Of a stretch of 37,226 bases of DNA, positions 10,179-21,219 are shown piece by piece. The first letter of the stretch is position 1, and the number at the start of each line of letters is the position of its first letter. Source of the DNA: a virus. Taxonomy: Duplodnaviria; Heunggongvirae; Uroviricota; Caudoviricetes. Below the pieces are notes generated by a model. It was given only the letters and a program-made list of their open reading frames with translations. It did not search any database and had not been told where the DNA came from. The stretch lies in IMG/VR virus record IMGVR_UViG_2529292736_000004; one strand, written 5' to 3'. The position numbers and the translations under genes are program-made.

Positions 10179-10263
10179 AGTCAGAGATAACAATCAACTA
10201 ATACTGTTTTGTTGATTTTTGCTTGTAATTGGCGTTCTGGTCTGATTTTTGTGGAGTAAGTTG

Positions 10264-10647
10264 ATGCGTGATATTCAGATGGTTCTTGAGCGTTGGGGAG
10301 CGTGGGCGGCTAATAATCATGAAGATGTGACCTGGTCGTCCATTGCCGCCGGTTTTAAGGGATTAATTACTTCAAAAGTAAAATCTCGCCCGCAATGTTG
10401 TGACGATGACGCGATGATTATTTGCGGGTGCATGGCCCGTCTGAAAAAGAACAACAGCGATTTGCACGATTTATTAGTAGATTATTATGTAGTCGGTATG
10501 ACATTCATGTCACTGGCAGGTAAGCATTGCTGCTCTGATGGTTATATCGGGAAAAGGTTACAGAAGGCTGAGGGCATAATTGAAGGGATGTTAATGGCAT
10601 TAGATATCCGGTTAGAGATGGATATCGTTGTTAATAACTCTAATTAA
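10264..10647 (+). CDS. quuD: Q-family late-gene antiterminator (QuuD-like), 127 aa
   Basis: [62 protein letters not shown]... matches DLP12 QuuD; Cys-rich zinc-binding region; ATG at 10264. Confidence 0.85.
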
Positions 10648-10661
10648 TATGCCAATTGTTT

Positions 10662-10698
10662 ACTAAAAATTATTAAAAATGGGGCGTTGCAACGCCCC
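10662..10698 (-). terminator. Palindromic GC hairpin (ggggcgttgcaacgcccc) with a T-rich tail on the minus strand; candidate nmpC terminator
   Basis: Perfect 6-bp stem with a 6-nt loop. On the minus strand it is followed by atttttaataattttt. It lies about 140 nt past the nmpC stop, so the assignment is tentative. Confidence 0.4.
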
Positions 10699-10835
10699 CA
10701 AAAATAAAGGGTAATATATAACAGAAGATTTATATAGTTAGAAGCAAGGTTGTGCTCCTAAAGGAAGTGGCTTGAGGGAGCCACTTATATGTTGGGGAGG
10801 CAAAGCCTCCCGCAACATATCTTTTAGTAATCAAA

Positions 10836-11918
10836 TTAGAACTGGTAAACCATACCTACAGCAACGATATCATCGGTAGCAACGCCAGATGCTTTCGTGA
10901 AATCGCTCTTATCAATCAGGTTGATTTTGTAATCAACAAAAGTGGACATATTTTTGTTGAAGTAATAGGTTGCACCTACATCAATATATTCAACCAGGTC
11001 CTGATCACCCCACGCACCCAAGTCTTTTCCTTTAGATTGCAGGTAAGCAACGGACGGACGCAGACCGAAGTCGAACTGATATTGTGCAACTACTTCGAAG
11101 TTTTGTGCTTTGTTGGCAATATGGTTATTACCAAAAACAGTCATGTTCTGGGTTTCAGAATAGGTGGTAGCCAGATAGATGTTGTTCGCATCATATTTCA
11201 GACCAGCTGCCCATACTTCAGCATTTTGACCAGATGCATTCAGGCTGTTGTTACCGTAGATAACCTGATTATTAGTGCGGTCAGATTTAGCATAGGTTGC
11301 ACCTACACCGAATCCTTCATACTCATAAGTAGTGGAGAAACCGAAACCATCACCATTAGCTTCAGTTACGTCAGTGCGGTCATTTTTACCCTGATACTGA
11401 GCAGCAAAGTTCAGACCATCAACCAGACCAAAGAAGTCGTTGTTACGATAAGTTGCAACACCAGTGGTGCGACCAGTCATGAACACATCTGTTTGGGTCC
11501 AGGTATCGCCACCGAATTCTGGCAGAACGTCAGTCCACGCACCGATGTCGTATGCTACACCGTAGTTACGGCCGTAATCGATTGAGCCGTAGTCACCGAA
11601 TTTCAGGCCTGCAAATGCAAGACGGGTTTTGTCTTTGGAGGAACCTTGAGATTCAGCGCGGTTGCCTTTGAATTCATATTCCCACTGACCGAAACCAGTC
11701 AGTTGATCGTTGATTTGGGTTTCACCTTTGAAGCCAAGACGGGCATAAGTAGTATCACCATCATCTGCATCATTAGAGGAGAAGTAGTGCTTAGCATTAA
11801 CTTTCCCGTACAGATCCAGCTTGTTACTGTCTTTATTATAAATTTCAGCTGCCTGAGCAGACATCGCCATCAGTACTGATGCAGCTACAGCAGAAATTGC
11901 CACTGTTAATTTTTTCAT
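10836..11918 (-). CDS. nmpC: Outer-membrane porin, OmpC/OmpF family (NmpC-like), apparently intact, 360 aa
   Basis: Signal peptide [23 protein letters not shown] followed by a classic porin sequence ([17 protein letters not shown]...GMVYQF). Antisense to the phage late operon between Q and the holin. Confidence 0.9.
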
Positions 11919-12347
11919 CGTGAGCCCTTTTTTTTGAACTATTATTAAAAAATGATGTCACTGCGCGATAAATATTCATCTAATCAATGTGATTATTTCA
12001 AGATGTAAGTTTTGGTTTCTCGTTTGATTTGTGAAGTAGATCTCTATTTTTATCTGAACTTTTTTCTATCGAATCCTATTCATAGCTCTTGTCTGAATAA
12101 AAATAAATCTACTAGCCAATTTATATTAACGGCTGTTATTTATAAGTGCTCTATAATTTGAAGGTTCAATTTAAATCGGCTAAAAATAACACTGGAAATT
12201 ATTTGTTGGTTATTTGTTGAGATTTGCTTATGTATTTGTAGTGGTGTTTTCAATACTCGGTAGCATTCTCGCAAATATCATTTAGTGGTTTACGTACGTA
12301 AAAAATTGGTTATGCTGTTAAGAGTGGTTACTTCGTCACACAGCTTA

Positions 12348-12380
12348 AACCCGCCGTCGAGCGGGTTTTTCCATTTTTTG
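12348..12380 (+). terminator. Intrinsic terminator on the plus strand upstream of the holin; candidate tR' of the late operon
   Basis: aaacccgc-cgtcga-gcgggttt followed by ttccatttttt. A possible promoter (TTTACG...TATGCT, about 12288..12320) lies roughly 60 nt upstream; that promoter assignment is inference only. Confidence 0.55.
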
Positions 12381-12468
12381 AGTCTCGATATTAGCTGATA
12401 ACCCAATACCTGAGTTATTCACTGACTGAACCGCCCCGGGTTTCCTGGAGAGTGTTTTATCTGTGAAC

Positions 12469-13359
12469 TCAGGCTGCCAGATCATCGTTTCCGATGGAAG
12501 CATAATAAGCTTTTTCTGCTTCTGCCGGTGGGATATGGCCCAGCCTTTCCAGCAATCGTCGATTGTTATACCAGTCCACCCACGTGAGTGTGGCCAGTTC
12601 CACTTCTGTCCGGTTTTTCCAGCTCTTACGGTGTATTACCTCCGCTTTGTAAAGGCCATTGATGCTCTCCGCCATCGCGTTGTCATACGAGTCACCAGTA
12701 CTTCCTGTTGATGCCAGTAATCCGGCTTCCTTAAGCCGCTGTGTGTAGGCCAGCGATACATACTGAGAACCTTTATCACTGTGATGGACTGTGCCGGACG
12801 GTCGACGGGCCCATAACGCCTGCTCCAGAGCATCCAGCACGAATGTCGTTTCCATAGACGATGAGACCCGCCACCCCACGATGTATCCGGCAAACACATC
12901 AATGATGAACGCCACATAGACGACCCCCTGCCATGTGCTGACGTAAGTAAAATCAGCCACCCACAACTGGTCAGGACGTTCTGCCACAAACTGACGGTTT
13001 ACGCGGTCGCCTGCGGCAACGGCTTTCCGGCTGACGGTAGTGCGGACCTTTTTACCCCGGAGAACACCGGCAAGTCCCATAACCGCCATGAGGCGCGCCA
13101 CTGTACATCTGGCTACCCTGATTCCTTCCCGTAACAACTGACGCCAGACTTTACGCACACCGTATACCTGATGATTCCCATCGTATACGCGCAGTATCTC
13201 TTTCTTCAGCCAGTCATCGCGCTGCGCACGGGCACTGCGTTTATCAGGATGATGTCGCTGTTGCTGACAGTGGTAATACGTTGACGGGGCAATATGTAGT
13301 TCACTGCATACCGGTCCGACCCCGTACAGCTTACGCAGCTTATCCAGCAGTGGCATCAC
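12469..13359 (-). CDS. IS629 OrfB (DDE integrase/transposase catalytic subunit), 296 aa
   Basis: IS3-family catalytic-domain sequence (…[48 protein letters not shown]…[11 protein letters not shown]…). Confidence 0.85.
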
Positions 13360-13682
13360 TTTTTCCAGAGGCGGTCGAACTCCGCCTTCGCAAAATAAGC
13401 GGAAGCCTGGCGAAGGATATCGTTACTGCGGCGCAGTTCACGATTTTCACGTTCCAGCTCTTTCAGACGCTGACGTTCAGCGGTGGTGAGCCCGCCATCA
13501 CCGCCTCCGGTATCCCGCTCATGCTGGCGTACCCAGACACGCAGAGTCTCCGGTGTACAGTCAATCTTTGGGGCAATGGAACAAATTGCCGCCCACTGTG
13601 AGTCATATTCGCCCTGACTTTCCAGAACCATACGAATCGCCCTCTGACGGACTTCGGGGGAAAAACGAGTATTTTTAGTCAT
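13356..13682 (-). CDS. IS629 OrfA (HTH transposase subunit), 108 aa
   Basis: [40 protein letters not shown]...; overlaps orfB by 4 nt, typical of IS3-family -1 frameshift elements. Confidence 0.85.
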
Positions 13683-13804
13683 CCTGTTTACCTCTTTCTC
13701 AGGGAGTTTAGTCTCCAGGATTCCCGGGGCGGTTCAGACTCCGAGTCTGTTACGTTTCGTAGTATTCCCTCAATTTACACCCGCTTTGTCTGCGAGGTGG
13801 GGTT

Positions 13805-14020
13805 ATGAAATCCATGGATAAGTTAACAACGGGTGTCGCCTATGGCACCTCAGCAGGTAGTGCCGGTTACTGGTTTTTACAGCTGCTCGATAAAGTCACG
13901 CCCTCACAGTGGGCAGCAATAGGTGTGCAGGGTAGCCTGGTATTTGGCCTGCTGACGTACCTGACAAACCTTTATTTCAAGATTAAAGAAGATAAGCGCA
14001 AGGCTGCGAGAGGTGAATAA
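13805..14020 (+). CDS. essD: Holin (EssD/lambdoid class), 71 aa
   Basis: [71 protein letters not shown]: small protein with transmembrane segments and a charged C-terminus, directly upstream of the lysozyme. Confidence 0.8.
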
Positions 14021-14517
14021 TGCCTCCATCATTACGAAAAGCCGTTGCTGCTGCTATTGGTGGCGGAGCAATTGCTATAGCATCAGTGTTAATCACTGGC
14101 CCAAGTGGTAACGATGGTCTGGAAGGTGTCAGCTACATACCATACAAAGATATTGTTGGTGTATGGACTGTATGTCACGGGCATACAGGAAAAGACATCA
14201 TGCTCGGTAAAACGTATACCAAAGCAGAATGCAAAGCCCTCCTGAATAAAGACCTTGCCACGGTCGCCAGACAAATTAACCCGTACATCAAAGTCGATAT
14301 ACCGGAAACAATGCGCGGCGCTCTTTACTCATTCGTTTACAACGTGGGTGCTGGCAATTTCAGAACATCGACGCTTCTTCGCAAAATAAACCAGGGCGAT
14401 ATCAAAGGCGCATGTGATCAGCTACGTCGCTGGACATATGCTGGCGGTAAGCAATGGAAAGGTCTCATGACTCGTCGTGAGATTGAGCGTGAAATCTGTT
14501 TGTGGGGTCAGCAATGA
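14020..14517 (+). CDS. rrrD: Endolysin (T4-type lysozyme fold) with an N-terminal hydrophobic signal-anchor-like segment, 165 aa
   Basis: Hydrophobic N-terminus ([20 protein letters not shown]) then a lysozyme-like sequence (…[19 protein letters not shown]…); start overlaps the holin stop. The gene symbol is by analogy with DLP12. Confidence 0.8.
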
Positions 14518-14972
14518 ACAGAGTAACCGCGATTATCTCCGCTCTGGTTATCTGCATCATCGTCGGCCTGTCATGGGCTGTTAATCATTACCGTGATAAC
14601 GCCATTACCTACAAAGCCCAGCGCGACAAAAATGCCAGAGAACTGAAGCTGGCGAACGTGGCAATTACTGACATGCAGATGCGTCAGCGTGATGTTGCTG
14701 CGCTCGATGCAAGATACACAAAGGAGCTTGCTGATGCTAACGCGACTATCGAAAGTCTCCGTGCTGATGTTTCTGCTGGGCGTAAGCGCCTGCAAGTCGC
14801 CGCCACCTGTGCAAAGTCAACGACCGGAGCCAGCGGCATGGGCGATGGAGAAAGCCCAGGACTTACAGCAGATGCTGAACTCAATTATTACCGTCTCCGA
14901 AGTGGAATCGACAAGATAACCGCGCAGGTTAACTACCTGCAGGAATACATCAGGACGCAATGCCTGAAATAA
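14514..14972 (+). CDS. rzpD: Rz-type i-spanin, 152 aa
   Basis: N-terminal transmembrane segment ([20 protein letters not shown]) and coiled-coil-like remainder; ATG overlaps the lysozyme stop. Confidence 0.8.
14767..14919 (+). CDS. rzoD: Rz1-type o-spanin lipoprotein, embedded in the +1 frame of Rz, about 50 aa
   Basis: [25 protein letters not shown]...: lipobox VSAC and a proline-rich mature region, wholly inside Rz. Confidence 0.7.
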
Positions 14973-17608: not shown

Positions 17609-17986
17609 GTAAGCGGCTCGCCAGAACCGTATTGATATTTACTGAGAAGTCAGATCAACTTTCCAGGGCAACAGATCGCGTACCCGGTTTGCCGGCCAGT
17701 CCTGGATATGCTCAATAACGTAACGCAGCCATTTTTCTGGCTCTACATTGTTCAGACGGCATGTGCCGATCAGCGAGTACAACACCGCCGCATGTTCGCC
17801 ACCGCTGTCGGAACCCGCGAAGAGCCAGTTTTCCGGCCTACCGCCACTCCCCGTAAGGCGTTCTCTGCGATGTTGTTGTCGATTTCCACCCAGCCATTAC
17901 TGCAGTACACGTTCAGTGCATCCCACTGTTTCAGCAGGTATGCGAACGCTTTTGCCGTATCTGAGTGACGCGACAGTGTTTTCATC
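17609..17986 (-). repeat. Partial (378-bp) copy of the IS66-family element end (terminal repeat plus tnpC 3' end), in tandem with the full copy
   Basis: 17609..17986 aligns with 17987..18364 with about five differences (for example TTTTCC versus TTTTTCC, and two changes within cagtgcatccc versus cagggcctccc); both copies start GTAAGCGGCTCGCC. Confidence 0.85.
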
Positions 17987-18016
17987 GTAAGCGGCTCGCC
18001 AGAACCGTATTGATAT

Positions 18017-19588
18017 TTACTGAGAAGTCAGATCAACTTTCCAGGGCAACAGATCGCGTACCCGGTTTGCCGGCCAGTCCTGGATATGCTCAATAACGTA
18101 ACGCAGCCATTTTTCTGGCTCTACATTGTTCAGACGGCATGTGCCGATCAGCGAGTACAACACCGCCGCATGTTCGCCACCGCTGTCGGAACCCGCGAAG
18201 AGCCAGTTTTTCCGGCCTACGGCCACTCCCCGTAAGGCGTTCTCTGCGATGTTGTTGTCGATTTCCACCCAGCCATTACTGCAGTACACGTTCAGGGCCT
18301 CCCACTGTTTCAGCAGGTATGCGAACGCTTTTGCCGTATCCGAGTGACGCGACAGTGTTTTCATCTGTTCCTGTATCCAGTCATACAGTGACTGCATCAG
18401 TGGAGCCGCTCTGGCTTTTCTTGCTGCCAGACGCTGTTCTGCTGAACATCCCCAGACTTCTGCCTCGATGACATACAGTTCACCGATACGCTGCAGGGCT
18501 TCCGTGGTGATGTCGGTTGGCACTCTTGCATGCACATCGTGGATTTTTCTCCGGGCATGGGCCATACACGCGGCTTCCGTTATTCTGCCGGATTCGTATA
18601 ACGCCCGGTAACCACCGTAAGCATCTGCCTGAAGCACACCGCTGTAACCGGCCAGGTGATTCTGTGGATGGATACCTTTCCGGTCCGGGCTGTACGCGAA
18701 CCAGACCGCCGGGGGCATCTGTGAACCGGCGTTACGGTCATCACGGACATAGACCCACAGCCGGGCAGTTCTTGTTTTACCACTGCCCGGCTCCTGGACC
18801 GGAACGGGGATATCATCCGCATGGACTTTACCGGGCATCAGCACATACTGGCGCAGCACGTCATACAGCGGCTCCAGCAGTTCAGCAACGGCACCGGTCC
18901 AGCGCCCCAGCGTGGCGCGGCTCAGTTCCACGCCCTGACGAAGGTATATTTCTGACTGGCGGTATAACGGCAGATGGTCTGCATACTTCCCGGTGACGAT
19001 ATGAGCCAGAAGCCCCGCTCCGGCATAACTGCGTGCAATGGGTTTTGAAGGTACTGGTGCCTGCACGATATGGTCGCACCGGCAACAGGCCAGTTTCGGA
19101 CGTTGTGTTTCGATAACCTTAAAAGCGCTGCTGATAAGCTCCAGTTGCTCTGACACATCACACCCCAGAGGACTGAGGTCACCACCACAGGCCGGGCAGC
19201 ATTCCTCTTCCGGCCGGATGACCCGGGTTTCACGGGGAAGTGAGGCCGGTAACGGCTTACGGGCTGAAGACTGGCGCAGGGCGGATGGCAGTACCGGGTC
19301 ATATTGCTCACCCAGCGTTTCCGCCATTTCTTCCTGAAGTGCGCTGATTCGCTCCTGGGCTTCCTGTATCTGCCGTTCGGTTTTAGCGCGAAGTTTTTCT
19401 GAGCTTTTACCGAACTGCATACGTTGCAGTTTCGCAACCAGCGCCTTCAGCCGGTTGATTTCGGAAGCATAAGCCGCCACCCGCTGTGAGAGCAGGCGGT
19501 TGTATTCAGCCATCTGGCGTATGGTGTCCTGTTGCGTCTGCAACAGTGCCCGCAGGCGGGCGTTCTCATGAGCAAGTGAGGTGTCCAT
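18017..19588 (-). CDS. tnpC: IS66-family transposase TnpC (orf3), 523 aa
   Basis: N-terminal coiled-coil/leucine-zipper region, CxxC zinc-finger-like motifs (CPACGG...CCRCDH) and a DDE-type catalytic region typical of IS66 transposases. Confidence 0.85.
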
Positions 19589-19607
19589 ATCCTCACTTTA
19601 CAACGGG

Positions 19608-19955
19608 TTATATGCGGATGCCAGCGCGTTCCGTTCGTTTCGGGTGCTTCCAGTTGATACCTTCAAGAAGCATAGATAACTGAGCCGGAGTAAGGTGCAC
19701 CTTGCCGTCACGGGTAACCGGCCAGACGAAGCGGCCCCGCTCCAGGCGTTTGGTGAAGAGGCACAGTCCGTCACTGTCAGCCCACAACACTTTTATCTGG
19801 TCACCCCGGCGTCCGCGGAAGATGAACAGATGCCCGGAGAACGGGTCATCCTTCAGGACGTTCTGAACTTTTGATGCCAGGCCGTTAAAACCATTTCGCA
19901 TGTCGGTGATACCGGCAACCAGCCAGATACGCGAACCGGCAGGGAGAGATATCAT
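19608..19955 (-). CDS. tnpB: IS66-family TnpB (orf2), 115 aa
   Basis: MISLPAGSRIWLVAGITDMRNGFNGLASKVQNVLKDDPFSGHLFIFRGRRGDQIKVLWADSDGLCLFTKRLERGRFVWP: canonical IS66 Orf2. Confidence 0.85.
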   Translation of the reverse strand: MISLPAGSRIWLVAGITDMRNGFNGLASKVQNVLKDDPFSGHLFIFRGRRGDQIKVLWADSDGLCLFTKRLERGRFVWPVTRDGKVHLTPAQLSMLLEGINWKHPKRTERAGIRI

Positions 19956-20605
19956 TAGTGGCTGCTCCCTTTCATTTCGCGGATAAGTGTCTGTAATAAC
20001 GCCGGTGTCAGTTCACCTTTCAGCCTGAGAGTTCCGGCCGGCAGAACCAGCTCACAGCACAGACTGTCGGGCGGTGTATTTATCTGTTCAGGTATCTGCA
20101 CTGGTGCCGGGATTTTATTATCCGGCTCCGGAGTTAACGTCACGGGAAGTAGCGATGTTTCATGTTCGCCGGTCGGCTGCAGGCCGCCGTTACGCCAGAG
20201 ATGCCGCCAGTTAAAGAGCAGGTTATCGTTGATTCCGTTCTCACGAGCTATTTGTGCGACACAGGCACCGGGTAAAAGAGTTTGCTGAACAAGCCTCCAT
20301 TTAAACTCCGGTGAAAATCGGTTCCGGCGGATTTTCTCTGTTTTCACAGGCTGAGTCACTGTCGGGGCTGAAGGGTATCGCCCCGGGAACAGAGCCCGGG
20401 CCAGTTGCACGCAGGAATATTCTCCGGAAAGAGGCCAGTCAGTGAATACCTGGTGAAATCGCCTCACCAGAGAAAAAATGGCGGTTTTGCTGATACCGGT
20501 CTGCGCAGAAATGCGCGGGTACGACAGTGACTCGTCAAATCTCAGTTGTAGCACACGCAGGATCAATTCCGGATTGTCTGCCAGTACCGCTTTTCGTGCA
20601 TTCAT
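19955..20605 (-). CDS. tnpA: IS66-family TnpA (orf1), 216 aa with an N-terminal HTH extension
   Basis: Contains ...RRNRFSPEFKWRLVQQTLLPGACVAQIARENGINDNLLFNWR..., typical of IS66 orfA. Confidence 0.75.
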   Translation of the reverse strand: MNARKAVLADNPELILRVLQLRFDESLSYPRISAQTGISKTAIFSLVRRFHQVFTDWPLSGEYSCVQLARALFPGRYPSAPTVTQPVKTEKIRRNRFSPEFKWRLVQQTLLPGACVAQIARENGINDNLLFNWRHLWRNGGLQPTGEHETSLLPVTLTPEPDNKIPAPVQIPEQINTPPDSLCCELVLPAGTLRLKGELTPALLQTLIREMKGSSH

Positions 20606-20699
20606 CTTAAATGTCCCTTTACTGCGAAAATGGACATTAGTATCGGAAACAGGAAAGGGAGGCGAAAGACGGTTTAAATGAGACGGTTACGAATGAACA

Positions 20700-21219
20700 A
20701 TGGAAGTCAACAAAAAGCAGCTGGCTGACATTTTCGGTGCGAGTATCCGTACCATTCAGAACTGGCAGGAACAGGGAATGCCCGTTCTGCGAGGCGGTGG
20801 CAAGGGTAATGAGGTGCTTTATGACTCTGCCGCCGTCATAAAATGGTATGCCGAAAGGGATGCTGAAATTGAGAACGAAAAGCTGCGCCGGGAAGTTGAA
20901 GAACTGCGGCAGGCCAGCGAGACAGATCTCCAGCCAGGGACTATTGAGTACGAACGCCATCGACTTACGCGTGCGCAGGCCGACGCACAGGAGCTGAAAA
21001 ATGCCAGAGACTCCGCTGAAGTGGTGGAAACCGCATTCTGTACTTTCGTGCTGTCGCGGATCGCAGGTGAAATTGCCAGTATTCTCGACGGGATCCCCCT
21101 GTCGGTGCAGCGGCGTTTTCCGGAACTGGAAAACCGACATGTTGATTTCCTGAAACGGGATATCATCAAAGCCATGAACAAAGCAGCCGCGCTGGATGAA
21201 CTGATACCGGGGTTGCTGA

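Follow-up and report, generated by a model that had tools for sequence, protein, structure and literature searches.

An intact nmpC/lc porin gene with an IpeX-type 3' untranslated region in a lambda-like prophage

Identification of an intact nmpC/lc porin gene

The virus record IMGVR_UViG_2529292736_000004 (IMG/VR; Caudoviricetes), a stretch of 37,226 nucleotides referred to here as the window, carries a porin gene at positions 10836..11918. From its sequence this gene is identified as nmpC/lc in an intact allelic form; nmpC/lc encodes the general-diffusion porin of lambdoid prophages of the DLP12/PA-2 type. It is followed by a 3' untranslated region (3' UTR) assigned to the regulatory RNA IpeX and preceded by a promoter region of the type known from Escherichia coli K-12. 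Because IpeX would lower the host porins OmpC and OmpF while the module supplies a phage porin, the module is best described as a porin swap and not as a simple porin addition. We hold this explanation with high confidence as a whole, that is, for porin identity, promoter, IpeX, swap and late transcription taken jointly. The phage porin NmpC/Lc, its site in lambdoid prophages, its silencing by the insertion sequence (IS) IS5 in K-12 and the IpeX RNA are all already known from the literature. The porin gene itself comprises the following features:

10836..11918, minus strand: nmpC/lc porin gene, an open reading frame (ORF) with ATG start, 360 amino acids and no internal stop
11850..11918, minus strand: signal peptide, residues 1-23, read from the sequence, with cleavage predicted between AQA and AE

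The original prediction for this stretch had proposed a full-length, intact porin of the OmpC/OmpF family, similar to NmpC and with an intact signal peptide, and the analysis bore this out. The 360-residue reading frame is uninterrupted, and Pfam Porin_1 (PF00267) covers the protein from end to end (1-337/337, E=3.1e-153). The porin reaches 518 bits against the OmpC-subfamily model of NCBIfam, for which the cutoff is 484, and scores under the equivalog cutoffs of PhoE and OmpF. Solved structures of 48 porins match it at E<1e-100, with Klebsiella OmpK37 as the nearest (6v78, E=2e-137). In the alignment it shares 64% identity with K-12 OmpC and 62% with K-12 OmpF, from which a 16-stranded trimeric beta-barrel with pore activity is to be expected. 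The signal peptide consists of MKK, a hydrophobic core and AQA followed by AE at the cleavage site, as seen by direct reading without a dedicated predictor. This N-terminal region is the same as in K-12 NmpC, and the mature chains of solved OmpC, OmpK36 and PhoE start aligning at residue 24 of the porin.

A search for disabling mutations by comparison with functional porins revealed none. The constriction residues K39, R60, R99, R150, D130 and E134, which correspond to K16, R42, R82, R132, D113 and E117 in OmpF, are invariant with respect to K-12 OmpC and OmpF. The loop-3 motif PEFGG (residues 133-137) is likewise kept, and the protein ends in VGMVYQF with the terminal phenylalanine (F360) present. 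A C-terminal aromatic residue of this kind is required for the assembly of porins in the outer membrane. With these sequence hallmarks of a functional porin intact, the gene is judged not to be disabled. Two ORFs run antisense to it, at 11037..11585 (plus strand, 182 amino acids) and 11646..11879 (plus strand, 77 amino acids). Neither matched a Pfam or PHROG family, and both were dismissed as chance ORFs.

The assignment to nmpC was examined by comparison with the DLP12 (qsr') prophage of K-12. Locus and orientation are the same, with rusA-ylcG-quuD, nmpC and essD-rrrD in this order. Residues 1-148 are 100% identical to K-12 NmpC, and 313/346 residues (90%) are identical over the part of the protein that K-12 retains. 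In K-12, IS5B is inserted 58 bp from the 3' end of the gene and removes the last 19 codons, including that of the terminal phenylalanine, whereas the window copy is whole and free of IS5B. The contrast with the IS5-disrupted K-12 gene that had been drawn in the original prediction thus holds. The window porin also represents another loop allele, which differs from K-12 NmpC in five patches (residues 182-187, 216-231, 263-267, 302-312 and 335-338). All five fall where OmpC and OmpF have indels in the alignment, and such segments of porins are the outward-facing loops L4-L8. Since the patches coincide with these indel segments, the differences are read as ordinary surface-loop allelism and not as decay.

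The IpeX region and the putative nmpC promoter

The regulatory features of the module flank the gene on both sides:

10672..10835, minus strand: ipeX-equivalent 3' UTR, about 165 nt between the stop codon and the T-run of the terminator, by K-12 identity and fold
10681..10698, minus strand: hairpin of the intrinsic terminator at the end of the nmpC-ipeX transcript, GGGGCGTTGCAACGCCCC + ATTTTTAATA, by terminator scan and as part of the fold
11919..12117, minus strand: homologue of the K-12 nmpC promoter fragment (-199..-1), by alignment to K-12 and strain CE0021a
11919..12426, no strand: AT-rich spacer between nmpC and an IS629 element, 508 bp with 32.5% GC, by composition

The DLP12 RNA IpeX, 167 nt in length, is made from the phage porin promoter within the porin transcript and represses OmpC and OmpF (PMC12197685, PMC5069750, PMC3617542). 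The window holds a strongly structured region of about 165 nt in the same position between nmpC stop codon and terminator. From the stop codon onward 192/200 aligned columns (96%) are identical to K-12 DLP12, where the 200 columns comprise the 3' UTR and a few bases of the quuD end. The 3' UTR folds with a minimum free energy of -69.2 kcal/mol (z=-9.8 versus shuffles). Position, size, 96% identity to K-12 and strong structure identify it as IpeX, and the window copy is predicted to be processed and active. The nmpC promoter and ipeX are contiguous in the window, as in phage PA-2, whereas IS5 separates them in K-12.

About 500 bp of AT-rich, putatively regulatory DNA had been predicted upstream of the gene, and the spacer of 508 bp at 32.5% GC corresponds to this. 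It is about 98.6% identical to K-12 in the alignment. Small ORFs within it gave no Pfam or PHROG family match and were taken as chance ORFs. In a 2024 study the K-12 promoter PnmpC was removed by deletion of -199..-1, and its transcription start site was mapped by 5' rapid amplification of cDNA ends (RACE). It was described as a typical sigma-70 promoter with CRP as activator and OmpR, IHF and MprA as repressors (PMC11677980). Compared with K-12, the window shows three substitutions in -199..-1 and a length difference of one A in the A-run ahead of the ribosome-binding site. The native nmpC promoter region is present and nearly unchanged from K-12, and a promoter is predicted within it.

A single nmpC-ipeX transcript would arise in the lysogen from a sigma-70 promoter located no more than about 200 bp from the start codon; in K-12 this promoter is under activation by CRP and repression by OmpR, IHF and MprA, and it is induced at 37°C. 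The porin precursor would be exported by the Sec system, lose its signal peptide by cleavage behind Ala23 and form a trimeric barrel like that of OmpC, and the 3' UTR of about 165 nt would reduce host OmpC and OmpF post-transcriptionally. Transcription would end at the hairpin at 10698..10681, just before quuD. In this way the phage porin would take the place of host porins, with altered receptors for phages and colicins, altered surface antigenic loops and altered permeability. On induction of the prophage, Q-modified late transcription would run antisense through the module to the lysis genes.

Predicted expression in the lysogen

Lysogenic conversion by this porin family has been documented since the 1980s. 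In K-12, nmpC responds to a shift from 23°C to 37°C with a 16.5-fold induction, which is among the strongest of all genes (PMC8544407). Both nmpC copies of the uropathogenic strain CFT073 are induced at 37°C at the level of RNA and protein (PMC12890032), and NmpC protein was found in the outer-membrane proteome of the wild Shiga toxin-producing E. coli (STEC) strain PMK5 (PMC9731836). The nmpC gene of Shigella flexneri is induced anaerobically, partly via FNR (PMC4229854). In addition, the small RNA RybB targets nmpC mRNA (PMC3333887). The lysogenic conversion that had been suggested for this gene is thus established for the porin family, by RNA and protein in wild strains and by an active K-12 promoter, and we infer it for the strain of the window.

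Several points weigh against an expressed porin swap. Transcription of the window copy in its own strain is predicted from sequence. The simple promoter scan revealed no consensus-grade minus-strand sigma-70 site in the spacer upstream of nmpC, and because of this result the promoter was placed by homology to K-12. Of the three substitutions, those near -194 and -174, at the distal edge of the promoter fragment, occur in the window alone when it is compared with K-12 and CE0021a. No Rfam family matched the 3' UTR, either at the gathering threshold in the whole window or in a permissive scan of 10200..14100. The only hits of these two scans were the ALIL element within the IS629 element, the cIII thermoregulator of lambda and a Trp_leader hit at chance level. 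Because there is no Rfam model, IpeX was identified by K-12 identity alone. The IS629 element 508 bp upstream could alter nmpC regulation. Finally, Prilipov et al. 1998 (cited in PMC3333887) call the nmpC gene of E. coli B 'quiescent' in their title.

It is possible, although we consider it doubtful, that the module chiefly serves the phage. Lowered OmpC together with a replacement pore would then take away the receptor of this phage and its relatives and so lead to superinfection exclusion and protection of released progeny, and permeability would be secondary. This is compatible with a porin swap in the lysogen and differs only in the beneficiary. Phage PA-2 would be in line with it, since OmpC serves as the receptor of PA-2 and is lost in its lysogens. 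The repression of OmpC and OmpF by IpeX (PMC5069750, PMC12197685) and the presence of the module in viable temperate phages agree with such a role. So does the clustering of allelic differences in OmpC/OmpF indel segments, which is expected of loops under receptor or immune selection. However, Pugsley and Schnaitman 1978 are cited (in PMC8544407) for an increased sensitivity to some phages and colicins caused by NmpC, and the module has been retained in a prophage that looks defective. The tail-fibre genes of this prophage lie beyond the analyzed region or the window end.

It is unlikely that the intact gene is effectively silent, with OmpR, IHF or nucleoid proteins repressing the AT-rich DNA and no conversion phenotype under ordinary conditions. 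The low GC content of the upstream DNA (32.5%) would suit such silencing, as would the reported repression of K-12 PnmpC by OmpR, IHF and MprA (PMC11677980) and the 'quiescent' gene of E. coli B. Expression is also strongly condition-dependent, as seen from the 16.5-fold difference between 37°C and 23°C (PMC8544407) and from the anaerobic induction (PMC4229854). However, the transcript of the near-identical K-12 promoter was readily detected by RACE (PMC11677980), and NmpC protein was detected in CFT073 and STEC PMK5 (PMC12890032, PMC9731836). Moreover, the uninterrupted module is kept in about 45% of complete E. coli genomes, which argues against a useless gene. An expressed porin swap in the lysogen is the reading that we prefer.

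Genomic setting and late transcription

The porin module is embedded in the late control and lysis region of the prophage:

10264..10647, plus strand: quuD, Q-type late antiterminator (Phage_antitermQ, E=4e-53; annotated as quuD in matching genomes)
12347..12368, plus strand: terminator-like hairpin with T-run on the late-operon strand (terminator scan; invariant with respect to K-12 and other strains)
13805..14020, plus strand: holin gene essD, P21-type (Pfam Phage_holin_2_1)
14020..14517, plus strand: lysozyme gene rrrD (Pfam Phage_lysozyme)
14502..14972, plus strand: Rz (Pfam Phage_lysis)

The porin gene is located on the strand opposite to the flanking quuD and lysis cassette (13805..14972). 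This agrees with the original prediction, in which the gene lies antisense, with the Q antiterminator on one side and the lysis genes on the other: quuD ends at 10647 and the holin gene starts at 13805, both on the plus strand. Between quuD and the nmpC stop codon lies a spacer of 188 bp that contains the ipeX RNA region. The 1.8-kb stretch comprising quuD end, porin and spacer is present in one piece in 2,463 of the 5,426 complete E. coli genomes (about 45%, at megablast-level identity), and the matching genomes annotate it as quuD followed by 'ompC'. Strain CE0021a, in which the locus is uninterrupted, and K-12 MG1655 both show the order rusA, ylcG, quuD, porin on the other strand, essD and rrrD.

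The exact 360-residue protein occurs on at least 1,000 contigs of the public protein collection, where it goes by names such as 'outer membrane porin protein LC', 'porin OmpD [Shigella sonnei]' and 'porin OmpC'. Two temperate phages that have been isolated, PhiR34_1 and PhiR68_2, encode a porin with 100% identity to it, and relatives were found in 42 phage records. Isolated phages and ten independent genomic contexts also share the layout of Q, antisense porin and S-R-Rz. This indicates that an antisense porin is compatible with a working late operon. The module shows the features of a moron, namely a promoter by homology, its own terminator, a position between phage genes and a GC content of 44% in the porin gene and 32.5% upstream, compared with 51.8% in the window.

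The carrier element is classified from its gene content as a near-complete lambda-like prophage, larger than a DLP12-sized remnant, because a cIII thermoregulator, a cI-like repressor, O/P replication genes and head and tail genes are present. The lambda cIII thermoregulator was matched by Rfam at 834..892 on the minus strand (88.5 bits). The cI-like repressor is encoded at 4578..5279, also on the minus strand, and the window further holds the O/P genes. The lambda-like head and tail genes reach to about 36 kb in the window.

By synteny, Q-dependent transcripts would start after quuD, cross the porin gene in antisense, the hairpin at 12347..12368 and then the IS element, and only thereafter reach the holin gene. 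Late transcription presumably still crosses the IS629 insertion. A consensus promoter scan of the region after quuD (10648..10835, plus strand) found no pR' promoter or Q-utilisation site, and the sole -10-like element seen there was TAATAT at 10712..10717 (plus strand), with no good -35. If the pR'/Q site is located within 10648..10835, it would overlap ipeX and its terminator on the opposite strand, resulting in face-to-face transcription units. A regulatory region controlled by RpoE and Hha (-121 to +650) has been described directly upstream of the DLP12 lysis genes (PMC7918800). In the lysogen, the hairpin at 12347..12368 may protect the lysis genes against stray transcription. An Rfam hit of Trp_leader on this hairpin (E=0.74) is at chance level and was rejected.

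Insertion sequences

The only strain-specific features are two IS insertions:

12427..13736, minus strand, transposase toward nmpC: IS629 isoform (IS3 family), 1310 bp, by BLAST breakpoints against the uninterrupted locus
17609..20690, ORFs on the minus strand: IS66-family insertion, about 3.07 kb, with an 8-bp target duplication

The first element is classed as an IS629 isoform on the basis of 96.1% identity to the annotated IS629 of phage BP-4795, with 100% of its length aligned. It is flanked by the 3-bp target duplication GAC (12424-12426 and 13737-13739). Its inverted repeats begin TGAACCGCCCCGGG and match at 23 of the first 25 positions. The IS3-family orfA/orfB domains are encoded on the minus strand, and Rfam identified an ALIL frameshift pseudoknot at 13285..13401. 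The insertion lies outside the promoter fragment, 508 bp upstream of the nmpC start, and precedes the essD start by 68 bp. The spacer/IS629 junction was found in none of the 5,426 complete E. coli genomes (at ≥80% coverage), and no exact match occurred in species-representative genomes. In another strain (CP049179.1, 2842..3611, corresponding to about 12302..12309 of the window) the same nmpC-essD spacer carries a 768-bp, IS1-sized insertion. Because this insertion is independent, the AT-rich spacer looks like a recurrent and tolerated IS target.

The position of IS629 raises the question of whether it dominates the locus. Read-through or outward transcription from its transposase could raise porin and IpeX, or the element could cut the lysis cassette off from upstream transcription; in either case regulation would be unlike that of the common allele. 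The short distances to both genes, the transposase on the same strand as nmpC and the absence of the junction from the complete E. coli genomes searched would fit. The same applies to the regulatory region described directly upstream of the DLP12 lysis genes (PMC7918800) and to the upstream transcription that has been documented to read through IS5 at the nmpC locus (PMC11677980). However, the insertion lies more than 300 bp beyond the -199..-1 PnmpC fragment, the hairpin at 12347..12368 is placed between the IS and nmpC, and the independent IS1-sized insertion suggests merely a tolerant spacer. Transposase promoters of the IS3 family are generally weak, and Q-modified polymerase is terminator-resistant, so that polarity on the lysis genes may be small. 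Dominance of IS629 is considered very unlikely.

The IS66-family element contains three transposition ORFs (18017..20605, minus strand) and ends directly before the start codon of Nu1, the small terminase subunit, at 20700. It probably displaces the ribosome-binding site of Nu1, and for this reason the prophage may be packaging-defective. As the insertions directly precede the holin and the small terminase subunit, the prophage is probably decaying and late functions may be crippled, and a prophage crippled in this way with an intact porin module may present a plausible picture of domestication. A more far-reaching version assumes that IS elements are dismantling the prophage while nmpC-ipeX is kept whole, and that IS629 could rewire the module, by read-through or by uncoupling the lysis genes, into a fixed host porin with altered regulation. 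We assign little probability to this version. The original prediction was incomplete and not wrong, in that it omitted the IpeX RNA and the IS629 that bounds the upstream spacer.

Implications

The analysis is mainly of value for annotation. The pipeline names 'ompC' (RefSeq) and 'OmpD' (phage records) conceal a prophage porin with a built-in repressor of OmpC and OmpF, and these labels could mislead analyses of porin loss or resistance. An intact nmpC copy can alter phage and colicin receptors, surface antigens and the entry of antibiotics. The nmpC copy should therefore be taken into account whenever porin-loss resistance or phage host range is interpreted for this strain. As a discovery the module carries little weight, since it belongs to textbook knowledge and thousands of public assemblies contain the exact protein.

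Comparison with known porins and morons

In addition to the intact 3' end, the window differs from DLP12 of K-12 in the IS629 isoform in the upstream spacer and in the far larger lambda-like prophage, with head and tail genes, in which the porin sits. A link to the Lc porin (protein 2) of phage PA-2 is suggested by the label 'outer membrane porin protein LC' on an identical protein in a public source. No PA-2 record was found in the phage collection searched. The Lc porin is phage-borne and is produced by PA-2 lysogens, which at the same time lose OmpC. This PA-2 biology is in part that given by the title of a 1986 paper by Blasband et al. (cited in PMC9731836).

With OmpC, OmpF and PhoE of E. 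coli and OmpK37 of Klebsiella the window porin shares the constriction residues, the PEFGG motif and the C-terminal signature. In contrast to these chromosomal porins, it is prophage-borne, located outside the ompC and ompF loci and equipped with its own 3'-UTR regulator. Orthology as implied by the labels 'ompC' and 'OmpD' was ruled out on the basis of the 64% identity to K-12 OmpC, the different locus and a model match at subfamily level only. Phage records and some database entries name the protein OmpD, and nmpC has been treated as the E. coli counterpart of Salmonella ompD (PMC3333887). However, OmpD is encoded by a core chromosomal gene of Salmonella, whereas the window porin is encoded by a prophage gene.

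Morons located between Q and S in lambdoid phages, such as stx, occupy the same slot after Q and before the holin gene, and likewise have a lower GC content and transcription signals of their own. The stx genes are in sense orientation and partly dependent on late transcription. The porin module differs from morons of the stx type in its antisense orientation and, according to the literature on other strains, in its expression from the repressed prophage.

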